64,000 nt of DNA from an uncultured bacterium (GTDB lineage: Bacteria > Fermentibacterota > Fermentibacteria > Fermentibacterales > JCC-6), in assembly GCA_964386635.1 (NCBI GenBank), contig CAYLRO010000004.1, positions 28,128 to 92,127 on the forward strand, written 5' to 3'. A model generated the notes under the pieces. The model was not told the origin of the DNA. It was given only the letters and a program-made list of their open reading frames with translations, and made no database searches. Every line of letters starts with the position of its first letter. The first letter of the stretch is position 1. Below are positions 10,030 to 27,534 of this stretch, one piece after another. The position numbers and the translations under genes were made by a program.

Positions 10030-10039
10030 GGAGGATCAA

Positions 10040-11290: not shown

Positions 11291-14096
11291 ATCTGGGTTT
11301 ACCGGGCTTTGTGACATCGAATAACGGTGTCAATCTCAGAATTGCTTCTTCCTCATTGGCAACATCGTCCTGACCGTAGCGCCAGGTGAAACTTCCAATG
11401 TAATTCCCTGGAACCAGTCCGGTTGTAGAGCCTGAAAGCGATGCAGGTTCCCAGGTTTTTCCACCGTTAATGCTGTAGTCAACAGCAAGTGTCAATGAGC
11501 GGTTTTCGTCGTCTGCAACTTCAAAAGATATCTCTGCGATTCTTCTCAGAGTACTTATCTCAGAGACAGAAGTACTAACAACCTCCGGGAGATTGGAATT
11601 CGAGAGAGTTATCGGCCCTATTTCCTGGGAGTACGCTGAATCCCTGTCAGCAGCAAGCAGCCTGATATCTATCTCTACTCTGGGAGTTTCAGGCAGGTCA
11701 ACTGAACTGTTCCACCTGAGAGTTGTGCTGTATCTGGATGCATCAATTATGGAAGAGTTCATGAGACCTGCGGCAGAATGCCATGTGTCATTTCTCTCGT
11801 GAAGTCTGTACTGCAGATCCAGGTGAATTTCGTCCCATTCGGAATCGACAACGGTGAAATCCACTGGGACCAATCCTCTGAAAAGATCGTATCTTTCTGG
11901 AGAACTGATACTGCAGTAAGGCGGTTTGTTGTTGTCAAGATGGAAGCCGGTGGATGGAACGGATACGCCGGTACCGCCCAGGGGAGGAAGAGCCCGGAGT
12001 TCTACAGTATCTCCATCAAAGCTTGGAAGATCCTCTGATGAGTTCCAGGTGATGTTGTAATCGTAATTTCCAGCCCTGACAAGTTCACAGTTTGAAACAG
12101 TTGCTTCATGCCATCTGGTACCCTGATCGATACTGTACTGGTATATGAAATTCATTGGATCCTGATCAGGATTGGTAAGCCTGACTCCGAATTCAACATC
12201 TCCTGCTGTTTCTACAGAGGGTACGATTATCTGAGGGGTGGGCAGACTCGAGGAAGAAACTGCAAGCCCGTCAAATCTGAACCAGGGTCCCGGGTCTGCA
12301 TCTGAAGCGCGTATCCTGAAATTGACATTCTCAGGCGGGGTTTCTCCCAGATCCTCGCTGGTATTCCATATAACAGGTTCACCATAGAACCATGACTCTA
12401 TCTCAACACTGCTTCCTGAAAGATGCATGAGATTCCATGTATTGCCGCCGTCAGTTGAATACTGAGCCTGAAGATGAACAATATCGCCTTCTTTGTCCTG
12501 AAGAGCATACCCCAGCCGGTACGTGTCATCATCGAGTTTTACAGGTGATTCAAGCCTGATAACAGGCGGGTCATTGTTGTCTATGTGAAGAAGGTCTGAG
12601 GTTCCGCTTTCGCCCAGACCCAGGACTGAGACAGGTGTGATTCTCAAAATGCAGTTCCTGATATCCATGTCTGGAAGATCAAGATGAGTATTCCAGGTAA
12701 CGCTGCTTCCTGTGTCTGTGTAGTTTTCAGTTTCATGCCATGTATATCCGGTATCAGTTGAGTAACTTACTGAAATCCCTGAATAGTCCGAGCATGATAT
12801 GGAATACTGGATTGAAACCGGTCCGCTGAACTCTCCTGATACCTGCTCAACCGTAGCCACCGGCAGAGAGCCTGTACCGAAAGATCCGGTGTTGTATTGA
12901 TCCCCGAGTGCCTGAGGCCAGTTGCAGTGAATTGACTGTCCTGATGAAAGTTCTACTGCCCGGACCAGCCCGGACGGTGTTACTGAGATCAGTTCTATCT
13001 GTCCGTCTCCGTTCAGATCAGCGGCCACAGGGGCAAAGATGGTTCCAACAGGATATTCCACTGGGAATCCGTCCATTCTTCTCCCGTTGCGGTCCCAGGC
13101 GTACAGGGTTCCATTACTGGATGATGCCACCACAGCAGGTCCCTGTTCTGTAAGAGATATGATCGGCTGGTAGGGTCTTGAATCTGTTTTATTCGGCCAT
13201 CTCCAGGAACCTGCCAGAGTGCCGTCGCCATTCAACAGGTAAACAAGGCTGTCGACTGAGGCAATTGCTATCTGAGGGGTGCCCTGATCGGGATCAAGCA
13301 TCCCCATTGCCGGGGCGCCGGCAACAGGCCTTGCATCCATATGAAAAGGCCACCCATCCTGCTCTTCTCCAAGAAGATTCAACAGATGTATCTTTCCATC
13401 CTGCGAAGCAAAGATCAGATCTGCCTGGCCATCTCCGTTCACGTCGCCGGATACAGGTGTAGTTCCAGCAGGGAATGAAAGTTGAACAGGCCATCCCGGA
13501 AGAACAGATCCATCATGGTGCAGGACAGTGATCTTCCCGTTGTTTGTGGTGCACACAAGGCCGAATCCACGCCCTCCTCCAAGACTAACCTGGGTTGGCT
13601 GGCATTGAAGTCTTGAGTTCAGGTTTACAGGGAATCCGGGAAGTGTTCTTCCTCTTGAATCCAGCATTTGAACATTACCGTCGCCTGTACCGAATGAGAT
13701 CTCAGGCTCGCCGTCATCATTCAGGTCAGTTACGGTAATCCCGGTAACAACGTTGCAGCTGTTCTCCACAGGCCATCCCGGGGATTCAGTGCCGTTGAGA
13801 TCAATAAGGTGAACTCTTACGCTGTTGTCAGCAAAGGCTATGTATGTTTGCGAAGCCATTGTCACAGCTGCCGGGCGCAGTATTACACCAGCCTCACCGG
13901 CAACGGGAAACCCGGGAAGAGGAGTGCCTCCTCCGGTCCATGCACCGAGGCCTGTACTGCCCAGAGGTATCAGAAGGACTTGTCCCTGACCGCCGGAGTC
14001 AATTACATGGCTTTCTCCTCTGGGAGTGGAGTCCAGCTGAAACTGCCACTGACTCTGTGCCAGCACAACCAGCAGAAAAATGCTTCTTGTTATCAG
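11268..14096 (-). CDS. Large secreted protein: FG-GAP/VCBS beta-propeller plus five ~105-aa Ig-like repeats with Asp-box motifs
   Basis: Repeated (G/D)(W/F)P and DLN(G/D)DG..E(I/L) blades; five repeats containing YS(T/I)(D/N)xGxxW-type motifs and mostly WN(T/S)xxDL. The ORF track starts at 14066; an in-frame CTG at 14096, 6 nt after GGAGG, restores a signal peptide. Confidence 0.8.
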   Translation of the reverse strand: MITRSIFLLVVLAQSQWQFQLDSTPRGESHVIDSGGQGQVLLIPLGSTGLGAWTGGGTPLPGFPVAGEAGVILRPAAVTMASQTYIAFADNSVRVHLIDLNGTESPGWPVENSCNVVTGITVTDLNDDGEPEISFGTGDGNVQMLDSRGRTLPGFPVNLNSRLQCQPTQVSLGGGRGFGLVCTTNNGKITVLHHDGSVLPGWPVQLSFPAGTTPVSGDVNGDGQADLIFASQDGKIHLLNLLGEEQDGWPFHMDARPVAGAPAMGMLDPDQGTPQIAIASVDSLVYLLNGDGTLAGSWRWPNKTDSRPYQPIISLTEQGPAVVASSSNGTLYAWDRNGRRMDGFPVEYPVGTIFAPVAADLNGDGQIELISVTPSGLVRAVELSSGQSIHCNWPQALGDQYNTGSFGTGSLPVATVEQVSGEFSGPVSIQYSISCSDYSGISVSYSTDTGYTWHETENYTDTGSSVTWNTHLDLPDMDIRNCILRITPVSVLGLGESGTSDLLHIDNNDPPVIRLESPVKLDDDTYRLGYALQDKEGDIVHLQAQYSTDGGNTWNLMHLSGSSVEIESWFYGEPVIWNTSEDLGETPPENVNFRIRASDADPGPWFRFDGLAVSSSSLPTPQIIVPSVETAGDVEFGVRLTNPDQDPMNFIYQYSIDQGTRWHEATVSNCELVRAGNYDYNITWNSSEDLPSFDGDTVELRALPPLGGTGVSVPSTGFHLDNNKPPYCSISSPERYDLFRGLVPVDFTVVDSEWDEIHLDLQYRLHERNDTWHSAAGLMNSSIIDASRYSTTLRWNSSVDLPETPRVEIDIRLLAADRDSAYSQEIGPITLSNSNLPEVVSTSVSEISTLRRIAEISFEVADDENRSLTLAVDYSINGGKTWEPASLSGSTTGLVPGNYIGSFTWRYGQDDVANEEEAILRLTPLFDVTKPGKPRFIQQVFR

Positions 14097-14156
14097 GTGG
14101 AACCTCCGGCTTGATTAGCTGTATATAAAAAAAGCAATAAAAGTATTTGCACAATG

Positions 14157-14240: not shown

Positions 14241-14306
14241 AAGCCTTCAAGGATTGCCGTATAGCGGTAGAAGAGGTAACAGGTCGGAATGACCGGGAGG
14301 AGCCAA

Positions 14307-15287
14307 ATGAAACTGGTCAGTATATTTCTATTCATTTTTACCGTTGCGGTATATGCCGGCTCTCTTCCATATGCTTACGGCGGAGTAGTTAATTCACCAG
14401 ATGCATATGTTCTCGAGCACACTGAAATAGAAATTGGAATAGCAGCAAGTGCTTTCACATATGAAGATTCAACAGGTGCCTCTGAGAGTGACGTGAAGCT
14501 CACAGGGTACCTTAATTTCGGAATACTCAGTTACGGAGAAATAGGGGCTTCATATCTTGCCGATGGCGGTCTTGTCATGAATGCCAAAATAGCCATTCTC
14601 AAGGAAGGTATAGTTGTTCCTGCTTTTACACTGGGAGTACAGAACGGTTTCGGCAAGGAACACGTTGACTGTTTCTCGGGACCTGCCGGTGTACCGGACT
14701 CCACTGGAGAGATCAACTCCCTCTGGGACGAGGAAGGCATGTATAACTACAGCCATGCACAGAACTGGTCGGTTTTCGGTGTGGCTTCAAAGGATTTGCG
14801 CTACCTTATCGGCGCTCCCCTCACTCTGAACCTGGGTATCGGTATTGGCCGATATGTGGGTATTATAGGAGAAGGCGGTGCGCTGGGTATGGGAAGTGCA
14901 ATTGCCAATGGTCTGTTCGGTTCACTGGTCTGGGAACCCAGCGAGTCTGTGGCTCTGGCTATTGAAATGGATGGAAGAGACTTCAACCTGGGCCTGGACT
15001 ACGCAGTGAACAAGAATGTGGAACTGCATCTTGCCTGGGCAGAATTCGAGATGATGGCTTTTCCTCCGGAAGGTCAGAACAAGCAGGATATACAGCAGAA
15101 TGCAAAGGTAACTATTGCCCTGTCAACCCGATTCGGTCCTCTCTGGGGAGCCAGTCGTCTTGAACTTGAAAGAGAGCAGCAGAGGATCGAAAGAGCCCGT
15201 CAGAGGCTTGAAGAGCTTGAGGCACGGAGAAGGTCCGCCGAGTCCGAGCTGCAGAGACTTCGAGACCTTCTCGACGATCGCAGGTAA
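14307..15287 (+). CDS. Probable outer-membrane beta-barrel (YjbH-like) with C-terminal coiled coil; first gene of the motor operon
   Basis: Signal peptide MKLVSIFLFIFTVAVYA; GGVVNSPDAYVL start; amphipathic strands (LTLNLGIGIG, FNLGLDY); heptad tail LELEREQQRIERARQRLEELE...; ATG after GGGAGGAG. Confidence 0.6.
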   Translation: MKLVSIFLFIFTVAVYAGSLPYAYGGVVNSPDAYVLEHTEIEIGIAASAFTYEDSTGASESDVKLTGYLNFGILSYGEIGASYLADGGLVMNAKIAILKEGIVVPAFTLGVQNGFGKEHVDCFSGPAGVPDSTGEINSLWDEEGMYNYSHAQNWSVFGVASKDLRYLIGAPLTLNLGIGIGRYVGIIGEGGALGMGSAIANGLFGSLVWEPSESVALAIEMDGRDFNLGLDYAVNKNVELHLAWAEFEMMAFPPEGQNKQDIQQNAKVTIALSTRFGPLWGASRLELEREQQRIERARQRLEELEARRRSAESELQRLRDLLDDRR

Positions 15288-15292
15288 GTCTC

Positions 15293-18200
15293 ATGCTTTT
15301 TCCCTGCAGATACATGAAGATCTTTATCATTGTCTGTCTCTGGGCAGCTGTCCCTGCTCTTTCTCAGGATTCTCCTGAAAGTGAAGATCCAGGTGCCATA
15401 CTTGTCCGGGCTCAGGAGGAGCTTGTAGATCTTGAAGATCAGATCATGCGGGAAGAGGACCGGCTGGCAAGGATCGAAGCTCAGCTGACACAGCTTCGCA
15501 GGCAGCACTCCATTCTTTCAAGCGCACAGTCCGCTTTCGAACTTGGCGAGGAACTTTACAATTCAGGTTCCATCGTATGGGCCAGGGATGCCTTTCAATC
15601 CATTCTGGACAATTTTCCCGATTCCGAGTACTTTGAAGAAGCGGTATTCAGACTTGAATTGATTGCATTCGAGTTGCAGGATTACCAGGGTACTGTGGAT
15701 CATTACCGAACTCTCATGCAGGCATCTCCTGGATTTATCCATTCTGATATTGCGATAATAGTCGGTGGTCTTGCCATGTATAACATGGGGCAGTTTTCCG
15801 AAGCCAGAAACGAAATACGCAACGTCAATCCTTCAGGAGATCACGTTGCCCTGGCTGAGTACCTTACTGCAGTAACCTATGTGGCTGAGGAAGATTTTGA
15901 TTCTGCCATTTCCAACCTCCAGCGAGTGATAGACAATGCAAGGCGTAACGAGAGCGGTATTGCTGACAGAGCAAGAATAGCAATTGCCGAGATCTATGTT
16001 AACCAGGGAATGCTGGAACAGGCCATTGAGCAGTATGGCAAGGTGTCTCCTTTCAGTGCCTACTACGATGTATCAATGCTGGGTCTAACCTGGACCTATA
16101 TGCGCCAGGAGCGTTACCAGGACGCCTATAATCTCGCAGAACAGGTTCTGGTTGAACTGCCGGGAACAGATCTCTACAGCGAGTTTGAACTTGCCATGGC
16201 AAACTGTGCTCTGGGAGCTCAGGACATAGAAATCGCTATTACCATGTATCGTGAACTGATGGATGAATACCGCACAACAGATAACTTCTACGATATTTTC
16301 CTCTCAGGAGATGATGTATCCGAACAGTATGATTCAGAGCGTGAAAGACTCGACAGGATCAGGCTTGGTCTCACGGAACTCAAAGAGGAAGCTTACATGC
16401 AGGGCGACATGGAACTTGTTGCTATGATTGAAGACGAAGAAGCTATGCTGAGAGATCTTTTCGTTGATATATCACAGTTCGAAGCAACGCTTTCCATGCC
16501 TGTTGATATGGACGCAGAAACCATGCAGCAGGAGTTGAACAGGCTTATAGCCTCTTCAAGGGCCAGTGCTGAAGGTCTTGCCATTGAGATCGAAAGCACT
16601 AATGAAACGGCAGATATCTACGGTACTGAATCTGATCGACAGTCACTCATGGATCTGGAGCAGGAGGTTTCCAGGATACGGCTTGCTCTGCAGGATCTTG
16701 CCAGTAAAATGGATAGCGGAATGGCTGGTGACCACGACTGGATGCAGGAGACGCAGTACGGTATTGCCATTGCCACTTTCATGGAACGCGAACTGAAGAG
16801 AGACTCTCTCAACTACCTTGGCGCTTACTATACAGGCAGAATAGAAGAGAGCTACTCCCAGGGGGACAGCGTCCTTGCGTTATCACTTGTTGAGCAGAGA
16901 CAGTTTGAGACCGTTGCTCTTCAGGGACGCATTGATGATTCAGCCATAGAGTGTGCAAGTTACTTTGAGGAGTATCTGGCACGGTATCCTGAAAGTCGAT
17001 TCACTCCGGACATTCTGGTGAGACTTGCTCAACTGTATTACGAGATAGACAAGAACAATTATCTGGATAGAATTGCTGCTTCCGGAGGAGAATTCATTCC
17101 TGCGGATTATTCAAGGACTATCGAGCTTTATGAGAGGGTTCTCAACCAGTATCCGGGCAGCGAAGTTGAGGATATCGCTCTCTACTCACTGGGATATGCC
17201 CTTAATGAAATCGGTGATCCTGAAGCAGCTATATCCAGCTACCGCAGCCTTCTGAGAGATTTCCCGGATAGTCCTCTTGCTGCTGAGACCTATGTAAGGG
17301 CCGGAGACTTTTATTTTGACTCTTTCGAGTTTGACAGTGCCTTTGTATTCTACAATTCAGTGCTTGATTACCCGGGAACCACTTCCACAGTGTACCAGTT
17401 CGGTGTGTACAAGCTGGGCTGGACAGCGTATCTGCTTAATGAGTATGAGCATTCAATAGCACTGTTCGGCTACCTTATCAGAGACAGTTACAGACTGGAT
17501 GAGCTGGGCCTGAGACGCACCACAGATATGGTCAGCGAGGCAATTGAGTATCTGGCGCATGATTTCATGGAGCAGAAAACCGGTCCTCCAGTCCAGCTGG
17601 CCACTAATTTTCTGGATTTCTTTGAGGATCAGCAGGTTACTGTGGATGTCCTGACTCAGATGGGAGACTTCTATATACAGCAGGGTTTCTGGATGGAAGC
17701 GATAGAATCATATCAGGCTCTTCTTGAGAGAGATCCGTACAATCCTCAGGCACCGTTTATCCAGTCCAGGATTGCTTCCGCCTACGAGGGTGCCGGCGAT
17801 TTCAGCAGTGCTGCCAGAGCTCGCGAGAGTATTGTGGATAATTACGGAATGGAAAGCGAATGGGCAGCAATGTCAGAAGACTCAACTATTTTTGGAATGG
17901 TTGATTCCCTGAGGGCTTCCTCCCTTGAACACTCCATTGGTTATCATGCCCAGCAGATATCTGAAGCAGCTGGTGACCCGCAGATTACAACACCTCTATA
18001 CAGCGGCCTGATCGAAAAGGTGGAACTTTACCTGGGTGAGTATGGGGATTCAAGGCAGGCTTACGACTTCAGATTCCTTCTGGGAGACTCGTATTACAAT
18101 ACCGGTCAGTTTGCCAGTGCAGGTGATGTTTATCTCCAGGTTGTTTACGACAGCACATCTGCCCAGCAGAGAGAGAATGCTGTTGGCAATGCGTTCAGTT

Positions 18201-19723
18201 CTTTCTACGAAGCTTACTCGCAGCCTTCAGCTGACAGTCTTTCCCTCCGGGCGAAAATGCACGAAGTGGCGATCTACTACGCCGACAATTACCCTGCTGG
18301 AGAATTTGCTGCTCAATTCCTCTTTGCCGATGCAGGTACTCACTACAATGCCAATGACTATGCTGTTTCAAGGGAATCTTACAAACGGGTATACAATCAG
18401 TATCCAAATTCGGAATATACAGCCAGATCGGCGCGTTTTCTTGCAGCGGCATATGAAGCTGAACAGATGTACTCTGATGCTGAGCTCTGGTACGGCAGGG
18501 CTGCCGATGCAGCTGCTGTAACCGGCGAGGATCTTGGTGAAGACGTTGAACAGCTTGCTGCAGCTGTTGCATACAGAGACGCAGAAACTCTTGCCCAGTC
18601 CGAGGATGTAGAGTCACTGCTGGCAGCAGCAGCAAGATTTGAGGAGTCAGCCAGAGCACACCCTGGAACAGATGTTGCTCCAGTATCCCTGTTTGATGCA
18701 GGTGAGACCTACGGAAAGGCCGGTGACATAACCAGTGCCATCAGGGTCTTCAAGGAACTCGCCAATACTTATCCTGAATCACAGCTGGCACCTGAGGGAA
18801 TGCAGAGAGCAGCGTTCCTGGCCATGGAAGCTGAGCATTTCATCGCAGCAGGAGACACATATCTTGATGCATACAACAGATTCCCGAATGTGGAAGGTAT
18901 GTACGCATCTCTCTACAGTGCTGCAGTTGCATACGAAGAGGGCGGTGCTGAAGGTCTTGCCATGACAGTTTATCAGAGAATCATTCAGGAACAGGCTGCC
19001 TCTCCGCAGACAATGGTGATTGCTCTGGGCAAATACGGAGATTACCAGTACGACAGAAGAGACTTCTTCGGTGCAAGAGAAACCTATATGGATTGTGTTG
19101 ACTCTTACGATATGTACAGAGAGGGTCCTGCCAATCATGCAGCAAGGGCTGCATTCAGAGTGGGAGAGATATATCGTCAGGACTACGACATGATTACTGT
19201 GAATACTGAAACAGTTGAGCAGAAAGCTCAGATAAAAACTGAAGTCGAGAGCTGGTACGGAAAATCCATTACTTACAATGTGGATGTCTGGTTCATGGCA
19301 TCCTGTGTAAGGGCTGGAGAGCTTTACGAGAACTTTGCCAATGCGGTTGCATTCATGGATCCGCCTTCCGGAATGACAGATGAGGCCATTGATGAATTCT
19401 ACAACCAGCTTTATATACAGTTCTATGAGCCCCAGATGCAGAGGGCTATTGATATTTATGTCACCGCTCTTGAGAAGGCTGTTTCCGCTGATGTAACCAA
19501 CGAGTGGGTGGAAAAGGCTGCCGGGAATCTTGAGCTTCTTGCTCCAGGTACTGTTTCTTCTCTTGGTCTGCCTGGTTATGAAATTGAGCCGGAGATCCCC
19601 CAGGATACCGTTACACCAGAGACAGAAGGGGGAGTTGTTCCTCAGGAGGGTGTGGAAGAAGCGCAGGATGTGGAACAGGACGGATTTGTGAACCAGAATT
19701 CTGGAGAGGGAGCAGGTGAATGA
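15293..19723 (+). CDS. Very large secreted TPR protein, GltD/AgmU-like C-terminal two-thirds with a GltC-like TPR/coiled-coil N-terminal part
   Basis: Signal peptide (alternative ATG 15314); many TPR motifs with YP.S; PDILVRLAQLYYE; C-terminal WFMASCVRAGELYENFA..PPSGM..E...Y..L...P..RA...Y..ALE...NEW pattern that I recognise from GltD-type proteins. Confidence 0.7.
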   Translation: MLFPCRYMKIFIIVCLWAAVPALSQDSPESEDPGAILVRAQEELVDLEDQIMREEDRLARIEAQLTQLRRQHSILSSAQSAFELGEELYNSGSIVWARDAFQSILDNFPDSEYFEEAVFRLELIAFELQDYQGTVDHYRTLMQASPGFIHSDIAIIVGGLAMYNMGQFSEARNEIRNVNPSGDHVALAEYLTAVTYVAEEDFDSAISNLQRVIDNARRNESGIADRARIAIAEIYVNQGMLEQAIEQYGKVSPFSAYYDVSMLGLTWTYMRQERYQDAYNLAEQVLVELPGTDLYSEFELAMANCALGAQDIEIAITMYRELMDEYRTTDNFYDIFLSGDDVSEQYDSERERLDRIRLGLTELKEEAYMQGDMELVAMIEDEEAMLRDLFVDISQFEATLSMPVDMDAETMQQELNRLIASSRASAEGLAIEIESTNETADIYGTESDRQSLMDLEQEVSRIRLALQDLASKMDSGMAGDHDWMQETQYGIAIATFMERELKRDSLNYLGAYYTGRIEESYSQGDSVLALSLVEQRQFETVALQGRIDDSAIECASYFEEYLARYPESRFTPDILVRLAQLYYEIDKNNYLDRIAASGGEFIPADYSRTIELYERVLNQYPGSEVEDIALYSLGYALNEIGDPEAAISSYRSLLRDFPDSPLAAETYVRAGDFYFDSFEFDSAFVFYNSVLDYPGTTSTVYQFGVYKLGWTAYLLNEYEHSIALFGYLIRDSYRLDELGLRRTTDMVSEAIEYLAHDFMEQKTGPPVQLATNFLDFFEDQQVTVDVLTQMGDFYIQQGFWMEAIESYQALLERDPYNPQAPFIQSRIASAYEGAGDFSSAARARESIVDNYGMESEWAAMSEDSTIFGMVDSLRASSLEHSIGYHAQQISEAAGDPQITTPLYSGLIEKVELYLGEYGDSRQAYDFRFLLGDSYYNTGQFASAGDVYLQVVYDSTSAQQRENAVGNAFSSFYEAYSQPSADSLSLRAKMHEVAIYYADNYPAGEFAAQFLFADAGTHYNANDYAVSRESYKRVYNQYPNSEYTARSARFLAAAYEAEQMYSDAELWYGRAADAAAVTGEDLGEDVEQLAAAVAYRDAETLAQSEDVESLLAAAARFEESARAHPGTDVAPVSLFDAGETYGKAGDITSAIRVFKELANTYPESQLAPEGMQRAAFLAMEAEHFIAAGDTYLDAYNRFPNVEGMYASLYSAAVAYEEGGAEGLAMTVYQRIIQEQAASPQTMVIALGKYGDYQYDRRDFFGARETYMDCVDSYDMYREGPANHAARAAFRVGEIYRQDYDMITVNTETVEQKAQIKTEVESWYGKSITYNVDVWFMASCVRAGELYENFANAVAFMDPPSGMTDEAIDEFYNQLYIQFYEPQMQRAIDIYVTALEKAVSADVTNEWVEKAAGNLELLAPGTVSSLGLPGYEIEPEIPQDTVTPETEGGVVPQEGVEEAQDVEQDGFVNQNSGEGAGE

Positions 19724-20154
19724 AAAAGCTTTTCAGCATTTTTCTTATTCTGCTTGCATACGGTACCGTGTTCGCTCAGCAGGCAACCCTGGAGGGCGGC
19801 AGGCTGATTCTGGAGGAAATAACCATTCAGGGAGAGCTGAGGACTCCGCAGGCTCTTTTTCTCATGCTGAAGAGCACTCCAAATCTCAGCAATGTTCTCC
19901 TTGAAAGAAGCTTTCTGGAAGATGTGATTCGCCCAATCTATCCAGGTGCTTTTGGTTCCGAAACCAGTTTCACAATTGCAGCCCGGCAGTCAAATGCTCT
20001 GCCGGTCTACATTAGATATGGATCTGTCGCGATACTTGGCGGTCTCAGCGCATGGAAATTCTCCGAGGGGGACGAAAAAGTCGGAACGGTTTTTGCTGTA
20101 ATGGCAGGCCTGGATGTTTTAGGAAATTTACTGTATGACCTTGTAGGTCAATAA
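19720..20154 (+). CDS. Small secreted GltF/CglF-like protein with C-terminal hydrophobic segments
   Basis: Signal peptide; LEEITIQGELRTPQALF...L.NVLLERSFLEDV motif; ATGA overlap with the TPR gene. Confidence 0.55.
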   Translation: MKKLFSIFLILLAYGTVFAQQATLEGGRLILEEITIQGELRTPQALFLMLKSTPNLSNVLLERSFLEDVIRPIYPGAFGSETSFTIAARQSNALPVYIRYGSVAILGGLSAWKFSEGDEKVGTVFAVMAGLDVLGNLLYDLVGQ

Positions 20155-20185
20155 AAGTTCAGAGCTACTAGAGAGGAGCCCCTGA

Positions 20186-21070
20186 ATGCCTAGAAACTTG
20201 TTTCCACTGATTATGCTGTTTGTTCTCTGTCTTGTGCCTGCAGTTTCCTCTGCTCAGACTGAGGAGGTTGATTCCGCAACTCCTGATGCCCTCCTGGATG
20301 ATTCCACAGCTGTTGATTCCACAGCCGTTGATTCCACAGCTGTAGCAGAGGAAGTTACTCCTGAGGAAACTGCTGCTGACACAGAGGCTATGGATGAAGG
20401 TACTGAAGAAGCAGCAGAAGAAGAGATAGAAAGTGGATTTTTCAGCGATCTTGCCACATTCTTCCGTCAGGGCGGACCGGCAATGTGGGCGATTCTTCTC
20501 TTCTTCGGTGTTGGTATCATCATTACCATTGAGCGGTTGATTTTTCTCTTCGGCATTGCTCAGGCTCATCCTGAGAAGCTTATGGCGAAAATAGCCTCTC
20601 TCATCAGAAAAGGCAGTATTGAAGGTGCAATCGCTGCTGTCAGCGAGGAGAAGGCACCACTGGCCAGAATTATCGAGGCAGCCCTGAGGAACTACAAGGG
20701 CACTGAAAGAGATATACAGAACGCTGTGGATGAAATGGCTCTTGCAGAGCTTCCAAGGATCAACGCAAGAATCGGTTTCCTTGCCATGCTGGCAAATGTG
20801 TCTACAATGGTTGGTCTGCTGGGAACCATCTTTGGTCTTATTGCAGCATTCGCAGCTGTTGCTGCAGCGGATCCGGAACAGAAGAGTGTTCTACTTGCAA
20901 ATGGTATATCACAGGCAATGAATACCACTGCATTCGGTCTTATCGCTGCAATTCCACTCCTCATCATACATTCCGTGCTCACTTCGAAATCGGATTCACT
21001 TGTTGATGATGTGGATAGATACAGCGTTATGGTCATGAACATGCTCGCACAGGCCAGAAGGAACGGCTGA
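20186..21070 (+). CDS. MotA/TolQ/ExbB proton-channel family protein (AglR-like) with signal peptide and acidic N-terminal extension
   Basis: GGPAMW, ELPRINARIGFLAMLANVSTMVGLLGTIFGLIAAF, GISQAMNTTAFGLIAAIP. Confidence 0.9.
   Translation: MPRNLFPLIMLFVLCLVPAVSSAQTEEVDSATPDALLDDSTAVDSTAVDSTAVAEEVTPEETAADTEAMDEGTEEAAEEEIESGFFSDLATFFRQGGPAMWAILLFFGVGIIITIERLIFLFGIAQAHPEKLMAKIASLIRKGSIEGAIAAVSEEKAPLARIIEAALRNYKGTERDIQNAVDEMALAELPRINARIGFLAMLANVSTMVGLLGTIFGLIAAFAAVAAADPEQKSVLLANGISQAMNTTAFGLIAAIPLLIIHSVLTSKSDSLVDDVDRYSVMVMNMLAQARRNG
20300..20344 (+). repeat. In-frame 15-bp tandem repeat x3 (GATTCCACAGCYGTW = DSTAV)
   Basis: GATTCCACAGCTGTT GATTCCACAGCCGTT GATTCCACAGCTGTA read directly. Confidence 0.95.
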
Positions 21071-21630
21071 TGGCAAAAGCGGCATCGGGGCGGAGCAGAA
21101 CAGGTAAGCATCTTCCGGAAATAGATCTTCTTCCGGTGATGAATCTCTTCTGCTGCATAATCCCGTTCCTGCTGTTCAGCGCTACATTCCTCGAGGTTGT
21201 TGTTATCGAGATGGCTCAGACTGAAGGTATCAGCAGTTCCGGTGCCGGGGCCACCGCGAACCTGATGCGTTCTGAAGAAGACAGACTGCAGCCCAAGATA
21301 ATCATGACCGAACAGGAGCTGTTCATTGGCACAGTGAGCGGGACAGTGCATGTTTGCTACGCACAGGAAAGAACCATGGGAGACGAAACCCATATTACAT
21401 TCCCGTGGGATTCACTGTCTACAAAGATAACAGAGGTTTACGATCTTCTCGACGAGAGCTATCCGCAGATAGATTTCCATAAGATCACTATTCTTACAGT
21501 TGAGGAGATGAGATACGAGAACATCATTTCTGCAATTGATGTTGCAAGTGAGGCAGGCTTCGATCAGCCTGGTCTGCAGGTTGCACCCAGTGCTTCTGTG
21601 AACTCCGCAATGGGTGGAGGTGGCAGCTGA
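21070..21630 (+). CDS. ExbD/TolR family protein (AglQ/AglS-like) with Asn in place of the TM Asp
   Basis: Single TM IDLLPVMNLFCCIIPFLL; C-terminal YENIISAIDVASEAGF; TGATG overlap. Confidence 0.85.
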   Translation: MAKAASGRSRTGKHLPEIDLLPVMNLFCCIIPFLLFSATFLEVVVIEMAQTEGISSSGAGATANLMRSEEDRLQPKIIMTEQELFIGTVSGTVHVCYAQERTMGDETHITFPWDSLSTKITEVYDLLDESYPQIDFHKITILTVEEMRYENIISAIDVASEAGFDQPGLQVAPSASVNSAMGGGGS

Positions 21631-22172
21631 TGAGTGCTCCATCCAAAAGACGTGTACCTCTTCTTCTGGGTTTCGGTAAATCCGTAGCCATTGCACGGGG
21701 TGGAGATAAGAAAGTAACACTGAACCTTACCTCAATGATTGATATGTTCACCATACTTCTGGTATTTCTTCTTAAAAGCTATTCTGCTGACGGACAGATA
21801 GTTACAGTCAGCGACCAGCTTATTCTACCCAAGGCTCGCATGGAGCAGAGAGTAGAACTGAAACTGGAAATTCAGGTGAACAATTCTGTAATTGTTGTTG
21901 ACGGAGACCCTATTGTTTCTGTCACACCGGACCTTCTCTCTTCCGGCAATTCCATACCTGAGCTTGTGGTGAGGCTCAGAGACCATATGGAATATTCAAG
22001 GCTCACCAGAGGTACACTTACTGAAGACGACATGAAGATCAACATCCAGGGTGATGTAGGGATTCCGGCGATTCTTCTTCAGAGAGTGATGGCGAGTTGT
22101 TCAGAAGCCGGATACACCTCACAGAACCTGGCTGTTATCAAGAGTGAAACAGTGGAAGGTGGTGAGGTCTGA
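21630..22172 (+). CDS. ExbD/TolR family protein (AglQ/AglS-like) retaining the TM Asp
   Basis: LNLTSMIDMFTILLVFLLKSYS; INIQGDVGIP..LLQRVMASCSEAGY; TGATG overlap. Confidence 0.88.
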   Translation: MSAPSKRRVPLLLGFGKSVAIARGGDKKVTLNLTSMIDMFTILLVFLLKSYSADGQIVTVSDQLILPKARMEQRVELKLEIQVNNSVIVVDGDPIVSVTPDLLSSGNSIPELVVRLRDHMEYSRLTRGTLTEDDMKINIQGDVGIPAILLQRVMASCSEAGYTSQNLAVIKSETVEGGEV

Positions 22173-24025
22173 TGGGAGCTGAGGTAAGAAAAGTACTTGC
22201 TGTTGCAGCCATGCGTGACGGCAAGGTTGTAACCAAGCTTCTCCCTGGAGGCAAGGACATCACTCTGGGCTCCGGCTATAACAACACCATTGCTGTTGAG
22301 GGTCCGGGGATACCGGAGAGTCTGGTGTTCCTCAGGGGAGTTGAAGACGGAGAGTCCTGGGAGCTGAAGCTATCGGATTCCATGGATGCGCAGATAACCT
22401 CTGCCAACGGATCGAAACTGAAGTTCAGCGACCTTAAGGGGCTTGGTATTTTCAATACCGACTCTGATGGTCACTATGCTCTGAAGGTGAACTACGGCGA
22501 CCAGGGAATGGTGAATGCCGGACCTTACACAATTCACTTCGGATTCATAGACCCTCCCAAAGTGCAGGTTAAGAAACCGGAACCGAAGAAGAAAGCTGAA
22601 CCTGCCGGTAAAAAGGAAGAAGTTCCCTTTGTAGCCGACAAAAGGATGCTGAAACTTGTTATTGAGGAACCGGGCAACAGAAGAGAAATCTATCCCAACG
22701 CCGGCATCATGACAATCGGAAAAGCCGATTACAATACAGTATCAGTTGAAGATGAAACTCTGCCCAGGATACATACTCTTCTTGAACCGGAGCAGGGAAA
22801 CAAGTACATACTCAGACTGCTTCCTGAGATAAAAGGCGGAGTTGAGGTCAAAGGCAGCGTCATACCTTTTGCCACTCTTATTGAAAGACATCTCCTGAAG
22901 CAGGAGAAACCTGGAGAACCGTACATCTGGGTATTTGACAGAAATGTATCCGGTGTGTTCACGATCGGTAGTACAGAGGTGTTTTTCGGTTTTGCAGAAC
23001 CGCCTCCAGAACTGCTTAAACCGAAACCGAAGCCGAAACCCCTCATCCCTGTAGAGAAACCGAAACCAGCTTTCTACAACTGGAAAAGCTTTGCATGCAG
23101 ACCGCATGAAAAAGTTGCGTATCACATCAGCAAGAACGAGAACGACAGATTCAAGATCATACTGGGTATCGGACTTGCAGCCGCTCTTCTCATGGGAGCG
23201 GTAACAGACAGATTGATCACTGTAGTTAAGGAATCAAAATCCCAGATTCTGAGAAATGCTCCAAGTGCCAGAGTTGCTCAGCTTTCTGAAACCCCTCCGG
23301 TTGCAACTGGAATGGGTGAGGAGATCATAGGAGACATGCCTGTTGCCCAGATTGAGGGCACCGGTGTTGGTGGAGGAGAAGGACCTGCAGGTGGAGGTGC
23401 CGCTGAAGGTGCAGATGCCGCAGGAGATGTTCTCAGCAGTATTGGATTTGCCGCATACGGTACAGGTGCAGCCGGTGGCGGTGCAGGCTTTATCGGTGAT
23501 CTTCAAAGTGCAGCCTCATCTGGAACCGGACTGGCTTCAGGCCAGACAGGTGATGCTATCATTGCAGGGGCAGGCGGTGGCGGTTCCGGTGGTCTCTCCG
23601 GTCTTGCAGGTGGTGGAGGCGGCGTAGCCGCATCAGCTGAAACTGTGAGTTCCAGCGACATGCAGGCTGCTCACCAGGCTGCTCAGGTTTCATTCAGCGC
23701 AAGTGCTTCAGGTGAGGCAATTGACCTGGGTTACAGGAACATGAGCGATATAAGACGAAGGATCAATGTGATAAAGATGAGGGTGCAGACCGCTTATGAA
23801 AGTCTTCTCAGGTCCAACCCCGGTGCTTCAGGCACAATCACAATCAACTTTTCAATAACACCAGGCGGATCGGTGACAGGAGTATCCGTCAGTTGTCCCG
23901 GAGCACTCTCAAGTCTCCAGGGAACAGTAACATCTGCAGTTTCATCGCTGAACTTCGGCCCGGCACCGGAACAGACCGGCAACCTGCCTGTTACAGTTCC
24001 GTTCAGTCTGGTACCGCCTCAGTAG
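22172..24025 (+). CDS. GltG/PglI-like TonB analogue: two degenerate FHA-like cytoplasmic domains, TM, Gly-rich linker, AgmX/PglI C-terminal domain
   Basis: Duplicated domain (ITLGSGYNNT...FGFIDPP / MTIGKADYNT...FGFAEPP); Pro/Lys linkers; TM IILGIGLAAALLMGAV; C-terminal IKMRVQTAYESLLRSNPGASGTITINFSITPGGSV...FGP...VTVPFSL; TGATG overlap. Confidence 0.78.
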   Translation: MGAEVRKVLAVAAMRDGKVVTKLLPGGKDITLGSGYNNTIAVEGPGIPESLVFLRGVEDGESWELKLSDSMDAQITSANGSKLKFSDLKGLGIFNTDSDGHYALKVNYGDQGMVNAGPYTIHFGFIDPPKVQVKKPEPKKKAEPAGKKEEVPFVADKRMLKLVIEEPGNRREIYPNAGIMTIGKADYNTVSVEDETLPRIHTLLEPEQGNKYILRLLPEIKGGVEVKGSVIPFATLIERHLLKQEKPGEPYIWVFDRNVSGVFTIGSTEVFFGFAEPPPELLKPKPKPKPLIPVEKPKPAFYNWKSFACRPHEKVAYHISKNENDRFKIILGIGLAAALLMGAVTDRLITVVKESKSQILRNAPSARVAQLSETPPVATGMGEEIIGDMPVAQIEGTGVGGGEGPAGGGAAEGADAAGDVLSSIGFAAYGTGAAGGGAGFIGDLQSAASSGTGLASGQTGDAIIAGAGGGGSGGLSGLAGGGGGVAASAETVSSSDMQAAHQAAQVSFSASASGEAIDLGYRNMSDIRRRINVIKMRVQTAYESLLRSNPGASGTITINFSITPGGSVTGVSVSCPGALSSLQGTVTSAVSSLNFGPAPEQTGNLPVTVPFSLVPPQ

Positions 24026-24043: not shown

Positions 24044-24072
24044 ACGGGCCGCAGCAGAGCTGCGGCCCGTTT
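24044..24072 (+). terminator. GC-rich hairpin, probable terminator of the motor operon
   Basis: ACGGGCCGCAGC-AGA-GCTGCGGCCCGT perfect 12-bp stem 18 nt after the stop; short U tract. Confidence 0.65.
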
Positions 24073-25549: not shown

Positions 25550-25575
25550 ACGTGAGCCCTGATGAAAGGAGCGTT

Positions 25576-27534
25576 ATGAAAAAGTGCAGTGTTCTTTTCT
25601 GCGGACTTCTTCTTTTTGCTTCCCGGGCAACAGCAGAAGACCAGCATATCCTTCTTCTTGTCCCGCATCGCTATGGTGCTAATTACAATTTCAACATTGA
25701 TCATTTTCAGCAAATGGGATTCATAACAACCACTGCAGGGATCAACGGAACTGTAACTCCCTGTAACTCAGGTATTCCAGTACTGACTGCTGATACCCTG
25801 ATAAGCGGGATACAGGACATCGAAATGTTCCAAGCGGTGGCTGTAATGCCATCCAGGTGGGTGAATGTACCGGAGCCTTACAACGATCTGATAACAAGCC
25901 CTGAAGCTCTGTCCATCATATCTGAAGCCTGTTCCAGCTCAATTCCTGTTTGGGCAACCTGCGCCGGTCCACTGGTACTGGCAGCTGCAGATGTTCTGTC
26001 AGGGGTAACGATACAGGGCCGTGCCGGACCTGACAGCAGCTTCATGGATATCTATGAGGCTGCTGGAGCTAACTACATAGGATGGGGTCTGCTGCCTGTG
26101 ATTCACCAGAACATTATCACAACAAGCAGGGGTCAGTATTACCAGAGAGAGAATTGTCAGGCGGTAATCTCTGCCTCAGCTGCAGCCGGAACAGTATGCG
26201 TATCAGAAAACCGTACTGGAGACTATTCCCAGGGAGCTCGCGACATAACTTTGACTTCAGACAACTCCTTCATCCTTACCGGTTATGATTTCAGTAATTC
26301 AGGATGCAGGAGCGATCTGCTTCTTCAAAAAGCGGACTCACAGGGGAATACAATCTGGTCAGAATCCTTCGGATCAGCGGGATTCGAATATGGGAACTCA
26401 GTAATTGAGGCTTCAAATGGAGATTACATTGCCTGTGGTTACACAACATCAGCCGGCAATGAAGATTTCTACCTTCTAAGAACAGACACTGATGGCAACA
26501 CTGTCTTTGAAACAGCATTTGGCGGTGACAGTCTTGATATCGCCACGTCGGTTGCTGAAACATCCGACGGCAGAATTCTGATTTGCGGATACACAACGGA
26601 GAATACTGCAGGAGAAAGCGATGTTCTTGTGATAATGTCCGACGGTTCAGGCAGCCATCTCTGGGAGAAGCGATATGGCGGATCAGGGCCTGAAACCGCA
26701 GATCAGATACAGATCACATCAGGTGGAAATATTCTGATAACCGGTTCTACAGGATCATTCACAGATAACAGTGATGCATATTCAATATTGACAGATATTG
26801 ACGGCAACATTATCTGGGAGCAGTACTACGGAGCTCAGGGAGGCGATGGGGGTTATGATCGTGCTAATGCAGCTGTGGAGACCACAGGAGGTAACATAGC
26901 CATAGCAGGTGACTCGAATGATCCTGACAACTGCGGCATGTACTTCATACTTACAGACGGAAATGGTGAGAAAATCACTGAAACGTTCCATGGCAATATA
27001 TTCTACGATTATGCAAACGATATCATTGAGACACCGGATGGTGGATTTATCCTGGCTGGAGCAACAAAGGACAGGTACTCCTGTGACAATAATCTCTTTG
27101 TGGTGAAGCTGAATGAAAACGGGGAAGAGGTATGGACAGAGGAGTTCGGGGGGGAGTTCACAGATGAGTGGGGCACTGCGATAACTCCAACAGCAACAGG
27201 TAGTTACATGGTTACAGGCCAGAGAGAGACAGAAGACGGGGATTATGATGTCTACCTGGTGGAGATTGAGGATTCTTCCCAGGGGGTATCCCCGGTGGAA
27301 CAAAGCCTGTTGCATGTTTATCCCAACCCTGCAGCTGAAACCGTAAATCTTATTAATGTTTCCCCTGGAACATCCTACAGCATTTATGACACTGCCGGCC
27401 GTATGGTTTCCAACGGGACGATGAATGACGTGTCAACCGGGATCGATCTGAAAGATCTTTCAATGGGAGTCTACACACTTGCTGCTTTTGCAGAAGGAAA
27501 CCCCGCAACGGTAAGGTTCACTGTTCTCAGATGA
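25576..27534 (+). CDS. Secreted DJ-1/PfpI-domain + beta-propeller repeat protein with T9SS-type CTD
   Basis: Signal MKKCSVLFCGLLLFASRATA; ATCAGPLVLAAADVLSG and IITTSRG (DJ-1); repeated (W/F)xxxxGGxxx(D/E)...D.GN..W blades; VYPNP...IYDTAGR...GVY...FTVLR. Confidence 0.78.
   Translation: MKKCSVLFCGLLLFASRATAEDQHILLLVPHRYGANYNFNIDHFQQMGFITTTAGINGTVTPCNSGIPVLTADTLISGIQDIEMFQAVAVMPSRWVNVPEPYNDLITSPEALSIISEACSSSIPVWATCAGPLVLAAADVLSGVTIQGRAGPDSSFMDIYEAAGANYIGWGLLPVIHQNIITTSRGQYYQRENCQAVISASAAAGTVCVSENRTGDYSQGARDITLTSDNSFILTGYDFSNSGCRSDLLLQKADSQGNTIWSESFGSAGFEYGNSVIEASNGDYIACGYTTSAGNEDFYLLRTDTDGNTVFETAFGGDSLDIATSVAETSDGRILICGYTTENTAGESDVLVIMSDGSGSHLWEKRYGGSGPETADQIQITSGGNILITGSTGSFTDNSDAYSILTDIDGNIIWEQYYGAQGGDGGYDRANAAVETTGGNIAIAGDSNDPDNCGMYFILTDGNGEKITETFHGNIFYDYANDIIETPDGGFILAGATKDRYSCDNNLFVVKLNENGEEVWTEEFGGEFTDEWGTAITPTATGSYMVTGQRETEDGDYDVYLVEIEDSSQGVSPVEQSLLHVYPNPAAETVNLINVSPGTSYSIYDTAGRMVSNGTMNDVSTGIDLKDLSMGVYTLAAFAEGNPATVRFTVLR

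Follow-up and report, generated by a model that had tools for sequence, protein, structure and literature searches.

A seven-gene operon of Fermentibacteria related to the Agl-Glt-type core complexes of Myxococcota

Gene content and conservation of the operon

We analyzed a stretch of 64 kb from the genome of an uncultured member of the Fermentibacteria (contig CAYLRO010000004.1; hereafter the window), and all statements about the window apply to these 64 kb. The list of its open reading frames (ORFs) contains seven co-directional genes on the + strand at positions 14307–24025, designated g1 to g7, which form the operon described here. Several of their products are named after proteins of Myxococcus xanthus, in which Agl and Glt proteins form a gliding machine. 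g1 (14307–15287) encodes a predicted outer membrane (OM) beta-barrel of 326 aa; this start is used in the public gene calls, and an upstream ATG at 14289 gives a protein of 332 aa. It is followed by g2 (15293–19723, 1476 aa) for a periplasmic tetratricopeptide repeat (TPR) scaffold, an apparent GltC-GltD fusion, and by g3 (19720–20154, 144 aa) for a small secreted protein in the GltF position. g4 (20186–21070, 294 aa) codes for a TolQ/AglR-like channel subunit, g5 (21070–21630, 186 aa) and g6 (21630–22172, 180 aa) for two TolR/ExbD-like subunits, "a" characterized by an Asn and "b" by an Asp, and g7 (22172–24025, 617 aa) for a GltG/PglI-like transducer.

Start/stop overlaps were read directly from the sequence as ATGA at 19720 and as cTGATG at 21070, 21630 and 22172. 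The operon is closed by a GC-rich hairpin at 24044–24070 on the + strand, with a stem of 12–13 bp and a loop of 3 nt. The hairpin region of 75 nt folded with -37.3 kcal/mol (z = -4.9), and none of 200 shuffled sequences folded equally well. Since the tail on the + strand is only UUUCGC, a weak U-tract, this is not a textbook intrinsic terminator, and we regard it as a probable transcription terminator or RNA-stabilizing stem. The seven co-directional genes, the four overlaps and the terminal hairpin had been described in a first-pass annotation made from the sequence alone, and direct reading and folding confirmed them. The GC content of the operon is that of its flanks.

Pfam and NCBIfam scans over the operon returned TPRs, MotA_ExbB, two weak ExbD matches, the AgmX/PglI C-terminal domain and a borderline TonB_C. 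NCBIfam gave nothing for g1, g3, g5 and g6 at E ≤ 10. TolB, Pal and TolA domains were found by these scans neither in the operon nor in the window, and the domain scans of the window proteins revealed no tolB, pal or TonB-dependent receptor gene across the 64 kb, so that an absence first noted for the locus holds for the whole window. The remaining scanned genes of the window are mostly housekeeping genes, plus several for proteins with the C-terminal tail of the type IX secretion system (T9SS). Public databases annotate homologues of the operon proteins as "TonB family protein" and "ExbB" (JGI) or, for some, as "AgmX/PglI C-terminal domain-containing protein" (NCBI). A sequence search of the PDB found no Agl/Glt structure and matched only TonB, TolQ and ExbB.

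In word-indexed homologue searches with g7, g4 and g1, the close homologues among the matches listed (120) all belonged to Candidatus Fermentibacteria, with Sabulitectum, Aegiribacteria and Fermentibacter daniensis as named sources. Four further Fermentibacteria contigs carry the identical seven-gene order, together with a divergent upstream gene of ~940 aa for a beta-propeller protein (see below) and groES/groEL downstream. Since the order is kept in these contigs while their g7 homologues are merely 49–60% identical, the arrangement is conserved and not a matter of chance, and the operon is an old and stable trait of Fermentibacteria.

Homology of the operon proteins to Myxococcota clusters

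The C-terminus of g7 matched NCBIfam NF033768 (AgmX/PglI C-terminal domain) with 44.7 bits at a cut-off of 40, and its C-terminal part alone also matched the NCBIfam model gliding_GltG (9.8e-13). TonB_C (24.4, cut-off 24.6) and TIGR01352 (26.7, cut-off 27.1) both stayed slightly under their thresholds. An exhaustive HMMER search with g7 against 1.84 billion representative proteins gave 360 matches, comprising full-length homologues and fragments from Fermentibacteria, some proteins in which just the C-terminal domain (CTD) was matched, and a large family of 440–480 aa. The members of this family have one N-terminal FHA-like domain, a transmembrane (TM) helix near residue 150 and the same CTD as g7. 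All 81 of the larger matches that were scanned hit gliding_GltG (best E-value 3e-61), and 80 of them the AgmX/PglI domain. We also scanned GTDB, with one genome per species, for the conserved LFQFVxPPP motif by means of a 22-sequence alignment. This confirmed 587 places, and the best 80 of them are the basis of all locus comparisons. Wherever the record names a taxon at or below phylum level, these 80 places are from Myxococcota (a few are labelled merely "bacterium" or "Proteobacteria"), and they include Myxococcaceae, Archangium, Anaeromyxobacter, Polyangia, Nannocystaceae and Bradymonadia. By sequence, the nearest relatives of g7 outside Fermentibacteria are the GltG-like proteins of Myxococcota.

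The structure of g7 was modeled with AlphaFold2 from 22 homologues. The model shows two beta-sandwich (FHA-like) domains at residues 8–126 and 159–275, both cytoplasmic, a TM helix at 323–346 and, on the periplasmic side, a disordered Gly/Ala-rich linker at 347–500 (~155 residues) and a compact alpha/beta domain at 524–614. Pfam did not detect the FHA-like domains. In Foldseek searches of the PDB, nearly all matches were FHA domains (probability ~1, E-values 1e-3 to 1e-2), with a tandem-FHA structure on top, so that structure prediction and Foldseek agreed with the FHA-like domains proposed by the first-pass annotation. GltG of M. xanthus has FHA domains at 1–114 and 190–329, a TM helix at 330–348, a disordered linker and a TonB-like CTD at 544–640, and the E-values reported for its second FHA domain are of the same order as those for g7 (PMC11761067). 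The domain layout of g7 is the published layout of GltG.

The first FHA-like domain of g7 (22172–22550) is without the canonical phosphothreonine-binding Arg and Ser/His motif (LGSGYNN...), while the second (22640–23000) retains the pattern G-K...R-I-H-T, which does not vary within the phylum. The FHA-like domains may be phospho-independent interaction modules. The CTD type of g7 recurs at 65–75% identity in two proteins with very different N-termini, P0123 (758 aa) and P0126 (645 aa); one N-terminus resembles a Ser/Thr protein kinase and the other a TIR domain (FISHSSGD...). This suggests that periplasmic domains of the AgmX/PglI type are modules that can be reused, probably within Fermentibacteria.

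The 80 Myxococcota loci share a common arrangement of two TPR proteins (750–800 aa and 1150–1220 aa), a lipoprotein of 430–540 aa, a secreted protein of ~80 aa and the GltG-like protein. In ~25 of these loci, genes for a TolQ (~215 aa) and two TolR proteins sit between the small protein and the GltG-like gene. When the window proteins were compared to all ORFs of the 80 loci, five of the seven genes gave significant matches. The first TPR protein, scanned for loci L044 and L047, matched NCBIfam gliding_GltC in both cases with 1e-14 to 1e-18, and the lipoprotein, tested for L044, had gliding_GltE as its top NCBIfam match (6e-34). In M. xanthus, the G4 cluster comprises MXAN_1919 (447 aa), MXAN_1920 (91 aa), MXAN_1921 (490 aa, TPR), MXAN_1922 (1111 aa, TPR) and MXAN_1923 (809 aa), and the M2 cluster (MXAN_3003–3005) comprises a TolQ-like and two TolR-like genes (Luciano et al. 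2011, PMC3169522, Table S3). MXAN_1922 is named as a gltD homologue in the text of the same paper, and we read the 91-aa MXAN_1920 as the GltF homologue in G4, since the homologue column of Table S3 appears to be reversed there. Because the sizes and order of the Myxococcaceae loci match Table S3, we identified the 80 loci as G4-type clusters. To judge from the gene orders, M2-type motor genes are apparently still embedded in the G4-type clusters of many lineages other than Myxococcaceae.

The G4-type clusters of Myxococcota (L005–L084) continue past the GltG-like gene with three conserved families that are missing from the homologue table of 2011: a protein of ~180 aa (47 loci, length-filtered), an outer membrane protein (OMP)-like protein of ~430 aa (61 loci) and a lipoprotein of ~200 aa (50 loci, length-filtered). 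Examples are found at 12189–14090 of L044 and 11468–19619 of L036. A coiled-coil protein of 340 aa is inserted after the GltG-like gene in 14 loci, and a beta-propeller protein of 1500–2300 aa is present there in six. Hidden Markov models (HMMs) of the three conserved families and of the coiled-coil family found nothing among the ORFs of the window.

The scaffold protein g2 consists of a GltC-like module at ~70–340, a coiled-coil or helical linker, a GltD-like body at ~520–1430 and an acidic tail. Among the ORFs of the 80 loci, the top 15 matches of residues 1–520 were all GltC-like proteins of 640–790 aa (best E-value 1e-24), and residues 521–1476 matched GltD-like proteins of 1150–1180 aa (best E-value 1e-71), collinear over ~900 residues. 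Pfam and NCBIfam recognized TPR and YbgF/CpoB-type repeats (TIGR02795, 1.9e-47); at E ≤ 10, NCBIfam gave no GltC or GltE match for g2. None of the proteins of the window or the bridging Myxococcota loci matched a GltD model in the NCBIfam scans, and the GltD identity of the 1150–1180-aa Myxococcota proteins rests on position and size compared with MXAN_1922 in Table S3. Since gltC and gltD are adjacent, often overlapping, and in C-then-D order in Myxococcota, a fusion is the simple reading of g2, and by these sequence matches g2 is a GltC-GltD fusion. The likeness to GltD that the first-pass annotation expected of the 1476-aa protein is supported, and the protein has a GltC-like module as well.

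In the Myxococcota clusters, the homologues of g3 residues 25–80 are the secreted proteins of ~80 aa. Phmmer comparison to about 40 small Myxococcota ORFs at the same position gave E-values of 1e-5 to 1e-6, and the alignment shows a signal peptide and a conserved block of ~50 residues with the motif I.L-E.I.I.G....P.A.F.L...SF. g3 has a C-terminal extension of ~65 aa with two hydrophobic helices. The label GltF refers to the position in the cluster, g3 having been compared with the small proteins of the Myxococcota clusters. The TPR, small and TonB-like proteins all showed significant similarity to GltC/GltD-like, GltF-position and GltG-like proteins of the Myxococcota clusters.

g4 matched Pfam MotA_ExbB (3.5e-26) and reached 72.9 bits against NCBIfam TIGR02796 tolQ, which has a cut-off of 221. 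Against TolQ of the Myxococcota clusters it scored 145–160 bits (E-values down to 3e-47, 38–43% identity), compared to 69 bits for ExbB of Parabacteroides and 40–43 bits for ExbB and TolQ of E. coli (20–28% identity to ExbB/TolQ references). We calculated a neighbor-joining tree of 35 sequences (214 trimmed columns, 100 bootstraps), with three sequences from Fermentibacteria, 23 from Myxococcota clusters and nine references (TolQ and ExbB of E. coli, ExbB of Parabacteroides and Phaeobacter, TtpC and ExbB2 of TonB2 systems). The Fermentibacteria and Myxococcota cluster sequences formed one clade with 100% bootstrap support, with the references outside. The Fermentibacteria TolQ is sister to the Myxococcota set and not nested in it, which speaks against a recent acquisition from any of the myxobacteria sampled. 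Members of the clade have in common the motif AMNTTAFGL, the TolQ/ExbB counterpart being EAL(I/L)ATAIGL. g4 retains the equivalents of TolQ T145, T178 and P187, and the equivalent of E173 is lost, likewise in the Myxococcota copies.

The two TolR-like proteins matched Pfam ExbD with 7e-7 (g5) and 1.8e-9 (g6), and their best matches in the Myxococcota clusters were the first and the second TolR gene, respectively. g5 has an Asn where the protonatable TM Asp is expected (LLPVMNLF). This Asn is present in all four Fermentibacteria sequences ("PVMNLF") and in 17 of 22 Myxococcota sequences ("PIMN[LM]V"), while the E. coli counterparts have an Asp (TolR "PLLDV", ExbD "PFIDV"). g6 has the canonical TM Asp (LTSMIDMF), as do all four Fermentibacteria copies and 14 of the 15 motif-matched Myxococcota copies (motifs "SMIDMF" and "SLMDI"); eight further Myxococcota copies that the motif search did not match also show the Asp by eye. 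The derived Asn/Asp signature is common to both phyla and therefore ties the two systems together independently of the other evidence. A further implication of the signature is that the TolR heterodimer is asymmetric and has only one protonatable site. The first-pass annotation had taken grouping with ordinary ExbB/ExbD or TolQ/TolR as evidence against an Agl-Glt relationship. Instead, the TolQ protein grouped with Glt-type clusters, and the TolR proteins paired with theirs by order and by the Asn/Asp signature. Profiles of g7, synteny and the TolQ clade together support that an Agl-Glt core homologue is present in this lineage of the FCB (Fibrobacteres, Chlorobi, Bacteroidetes) group. The kinship to the M. 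xanthus machines stood as far as the family is concerned; the nearest relatives are the non-motility paralogues of G4 and M2 and not the gliding genes of G1, G2 and M1.

The N-terminus of g4 (20186–20460) is signal-peptide-like and continues with a low-complexity acidic extension of ~70 residues ahead of the three-TM core. The extension is rich in Asp, Glu, Thr and Ala, contains a repeated TAVDS motif and is missing in the ~215-aa Myxococcota copies; it recalls the N-terminal extensions of some long ExbB proteins. The best plasmid match to g4 (95 bits, 34.5% identity) was a TolQ of the mobilizable Vibrio alginolyticus plasmid pMBL96 (L087, NZ_CP013488.1: 35716–54315), which is sister to the clade of Fermentibacteria and Myxococcota with 64% bootstrap support. 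The plasmid genes are in the order Ig-like giant protein, OM barrel (442 aa), hypothetical proteins of 210, 726, 111 and 80 aa, TolQ (207 aa), a hypothetical protein of 149 aa, ExbD, hypothetical proteins of 318 and 149 aa, and a transglutaminase-like (LapG-type) cysteine peptidase. This cluster may be a gammaproteobacterial relative of the core complex linked to a giant adhesin.

The product of g1 is secreted and was modeled by AlphaFold2 with ~12–14 strands (pLDDT 70, pTM 0.64). Its long C-terminal helix (residues 282–325, ELEREQQRIERAR...) is nearly invariant in the phylum. The top Foldseek matches in the PDB were all OM barrels (E-value 8e-7), and the best TM-scores were obtained with the 12-stranded barrels FapF and COG4313, in agreement with the OM barrel of the first-pass annotation. 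No Pfam or NCBIfam model matched g1. Comparison by hhalign to the OMP430, lipo200, p180 and coiled-coil families of Myxococcota gave probabilities of ~1% or less, and we regard them as unrelated. From position and fold we infer that g1 would be the OM anchor of the machine.

Comparison with known systems and proposed function

The operon resembles the G4/M2-type clusters of Myxococcota in the order GltC-like, GltD-like, small secreted protein, TolQ, TolR(Asn), TolR(Asp), GltG-like, in the AgmX/PglI C-terminal domain and in its TolQ; the G4-type and M2-type genes are contiguous in Bradymonadia, Polyangia, Anaeromyxobacter and others. It differs from them in the fused GltC and GltD, in two FHA-like domains of the GltG-like protein instead of one, in the longer small protein, in the signal peptide and acidic extension of TolQ, and in the missing GltE-like lipoprotein. 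Instead of the downstream genes for the 180-aa protein, the ~430-aa OMP and the ~200-aa lipoprotein, it has an unrelated upstream barrel with a coiled-coil tail. The Agl-Glt gliding (AglRQS; GltA-K) and Agl-Nfs spore-coat (NfsA-H) machines of M. xanthus likewise have one TolQ-like and two TolR-like proteins, the GltG layout, a TPR scaffold of the GltC/GltD type, a small protein in the GltF position and an OM barrel. In contrast to the Agl-Glt genes, which are spread over three or more loci, those of the window form one operon, and their products are nearer to the non-motility paralogues. The barrel has no detectable homology to GltA/B/H, as judged by its phylum-restricted homologue matches. 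GltE, GltI, GltJ, GltK, CglB, AglZ and MglA did not turn up in the operon or window in comparisons made without M. xanthus reference sequences, and NCBIfam scans of the window proteins returned no GltJ and no gliding model besides GltG.

Another member of the FCB group, Fibrobacter succinogenes S85, has a core of Fisuc_1892 (746 aa, GltC-like), Fisuc_1893 (1292 aa, GltD-like), Fisuc_1894 (TolQ-like), Fisuc_1896 (TolR-like) and Fisuc_1897 (308 aa, TonB-like), and no GltE is listed (PMC3169522, Table S3). Compared by published sizes and order only, this is also a single cluster with GltC, GltD, AglR, TolR and TonB-like genes, but its GltC and GltD are separate and the length of its TonB-like protein leaves no room for tandem FHA domains. 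The core complex, which corresponds to the Group B genes, was also described in Gamma- and Betaproteobacteria and Geobacter (Luciano et al. 2011). With TolQRA-Pal and ExbBD-TonB the operon shares the Thr/Pro residues of MotA/TolQ/ExbB-family channels, ExbD/TolR-type partners, a bitopic transducer with a TonB-like CTD and CpoB/YbgF-type TPR repeats. Unlike in these systems, the TolR pair is heteromeric with one Asp-less member, the counterpart of TolQ E173 is lost, the transducer has FHA-like domains in the cytoplasm, a giant TPR scaffold is present, and TolB, Pal and a TonB-dependent receptor are not encoded in the window.

We consider it probable that the operon is the Fermentibacteria version of the Agl-Glt-type core complex, a trans-envelope machine that is kin to TolQRA/ExbBD-TonB and closest to the G4/M2-type clusters. 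Homology and synteny establish the parts list, the relationships of the parts and the conservation of the operon. By analogy, the function would be force transmission to the outer membrane or surface driven by the proton-motive force (pmf). In such a machine, a TolQ pentamer would enclose the TolRa/TolRb heterodimer (TolQ5:TolRa:TolRb), with proton flow via the single Asp, and this stator would convert the flow into motion of the GltG TM helix, which together with the juxtamembrane FHA-like domain would bind to the exterior of the pentamer. The long disordered linker would cross the periplasm and carry the movement to the CTD. The CTD would dock on the GltD module, and the small protein would bridge to the GltC module, located under the outer membrane and tethered by the C-terminal helix of the barrel. 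The output would be mechanical work on an OM or surface component, i.e., moving, exposing or remodeling an adhesin or polymer. More tentatively, the operon could encode the main pmf-driven device by which Fermentibacteria move or expose a protein or polymer of the surface, possibly the integrin-like beta-propeller protein of the neighboring gene.

Several points weigh against the assignment to the Agl-Glt-type core complexes. GltE, which the first-pass annotation had counted among the core parts, is absent: an HMM of 45 GltE-like proteins from Myxococcota found no window ORF of at least 50 aa at E < 0.1, and no window protein matched NCBIfam gliding_GltE. GltF, also counted as a conserved core part, stands outside the core in Luciano et al. 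2011 (PMC3169522). No g1 homologue from outside Fermentibacteria was among the matches listed. The match of g7 to gliding_GltG covers the C-terminal third of this equivalog model with 47.5 bits; since the cut-off of 650 bits is missed, g7 is a member of the family and not an orthologue of M. xanthus GltG. The link to named M. xanthus proteins was made through NCBIfam profiles, directly for GltG and through the bridging Myxococcota loci for GltC and GltE, and through published sizes and order. The TolQ tree is distance-based with few outgroups, and its sample includes neither AglR of M. xanthus nor other ExbB/TolQ paralogues of Fermentibacteria or the FCB group. The mechanism, including stoichiometry and contacts, is drawn by analogy from structures of TolQR/ExbBD and from the AlphaFold model published for Agl-Glt. 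Finally, the closest characterized relatives (M. xanthus G4, G5 and M2) have no known phenotype, so that the output function is wholly deduced (PMC3169522).

The normal movement of M. xanthus G4, G5 and M2 mutants (PMC3169522) would also fit a housekeeping system for envelope integrity or division that, similar to Tol-Pal/CpoB, tethers or constricts the outer membrane and might replace Tol-Pal in the phylum. The operon is present throughout Fermentibacteria amid housekeeping genes (groES/groEL, pdxS/T), g2 is strong on YbgF/CpoB-type repeats, and the G4-type cluster is very widespread in Myxococcota, with its 587 confirmed places among GTDB species genomes. We nevertheless consider such a role unlikely, as TolB/Pal homologues are absent from operon and window, the transducer combines FHA-like domains in the cytoplasm with a CTD of the AgmX/PglI type and not with TolA domain III, and M. 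xanthus has a separate, complete Tol-Pal beside its Glt-type clusters (PMC3169522). A true gliding engine, i.e., a minimal Agl-Glt machine with a surface adhesin such as the neighboring propeller protein, is very unlikely. Luciano et al. (2011, PMC3169522) argue that motility takes more than the core and that most bacteria with the core do not glide. In favor of gliding, g7 shares its tandem-FHA layout with GltG, a motility protein, where the G4-type relatives have just one FHA-like domain, and the conserved secreted neighbor carries an integrin-alpha-like FG-GAP propeller. Against it, the relatives by sequence belong to the non-motility G4/M2 type, the likeness of the propeller protein is confined to the repeat level, and homologues of GltA/B/H/K, GltI, GltJ, CglB, AglZ and MglA were not seen in the operon or window in the comparisons described above. 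Our literature search found no report of gliding for Fermentibacteria.

Still less likely is an ordinary TonB-ExbB-ExbD energizer with two ExbD copies, which would power TonB-dependent receptors encoded elsewhere. TonB-ExbB-ExbD systems with two ExbD proteins are common in Bacteroidota and some Alphaproteobacteria. The order ExbB-ExbD-ExbD is known from ordinary systems, e.g., on a Phaeobacter plasmid, and both the Pfam names (MotA_ExbB, ExbD, TonB_C) and the JGI labels point to this interpretation. It is at odds with the borderline TonB_C/TIGR01352 scores next to an AgmX/PglI domain above its cut-off, with the identities of TolQ and its fully supported clade, with a TolR without the essential Asp, with the tandem cytoplasmic FHA-like domains of the transducer, and with the addition of a 1476-aa GltC/GltD-like scaffold and a GltF-position protein to the operon. 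No TonB-dependent receptor is encoded nearby.

The operon is not a new kind of machine. The family and its occurrence in Fibrobacter as an FCB member were already published in 2011 (PMC3169522). New are the phylum, the single-operon form with seven genes, the GltC-GltD fusion suggested by sequence, the lack of GltE, the barrel confined to the lineage, the combination of a tandem-FHA transducer with G4-type relatives, and the Asn/Asp TolR signature across phyla. Neither an account of the system in Fermentibacteria nor later work on the M. xanthus G4, G5 and M2 clusters turned up in the literature search. What the Agl-Glt core complex does beyond gliding and sporulation of myxobacteria has been asked since 2011. 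In the window, all homologous components are found in one translationally coupled operon that is conserved across an uncultured FCB phylum, and this operon would define as indispensable the small protein, TolQ, the Asn and Asp forms of TolR, the transducer related to GltG and the two scaffold modules, GltC and GltD. The putative GltC-GltD fusion would be independent evidence for the proposal of the 2025 AlphaFold model of Agl-Glt that both proteins act physically as a single unit. Since the Asp-less TolR is common to Fermentibacteria and Myxococcota, the asymmetric stator plug is probably old. If the operon does serve as the main pmf-driven surface device, it would represent the minimal natural form of the machine ancestral to myxobacterial gliding and spore-coat assembly, the Asp/Asn heterodimeric TolR plug would be an ancestral trait of the whole family, and with its seven genes the unit would lend itself to experiments on the role of Glt-type cores in non-gliding bacteria.

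The divergent propeller gene and other genes of the window

The gene divergent to the operon (11268–14066, - strand) encodes a protein of 932 aa and is a tentative associate of the operon. According to Pfam, the protein has an N-terminal FG-GAP-type (integrin-alpha-like) beta-propeller, followed by repeated Ig/BNR-like modules; it has no T9SS tail. This neighbor was found in all four other Fermentibacteria loci. Its homologues carry a signal peptide, with a clear one in L001 and L003 at the equivalent place. For the gene in the window (N-terminal region at 13767–14126, - strand), a signal-peptide-like stretch RRFHLITRSIFLLVVLAQS precedes the first ATG/GTG/TTG of the ORF. The gene may have a non-canonical start codon (ATT/ATA), or export may have been lost.

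The propeller repeats of the 1500–2300-aa proteins encoded just downstream of the cluster in six Myxococcota loci resemble those of the 932-aa protein (E-values 1e-30 to 7e-48). We considered the 932-aa protein as an eighth component common to both phyla, and downgraded this reading because the likeness is confined to the propeller repeats at shifting offsets. It was further weakened by the presence of such a gene in just six of ~45 loci with enough downstream flank. The 932-aa beta-propeller protein is only a candidate for the cargo of the machine.

A beta-helix/PMP-repeat protein, a CotH kinase that also has a lamin-tail domain, and a protein with a DJ-1/PfpI domain, encoded at 274–1644, 3047–5188 and 25552–27534 of the window, each have a T9SS C-terminal sorting domain. 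We concluded from these proteins that the organism possesses a type IX secretion system. At 9974–11290 (+ strand), a protein of 438 aa has two Thy1 (ThyX) stretches and about twice the usual length of ThyX. Its sequence suggests a flavin-dependent thymidylate synthase in tandem or fused form, and the start of its ORF, as called, overlaps the end of the upstream NAGidase gene by 56 nt.

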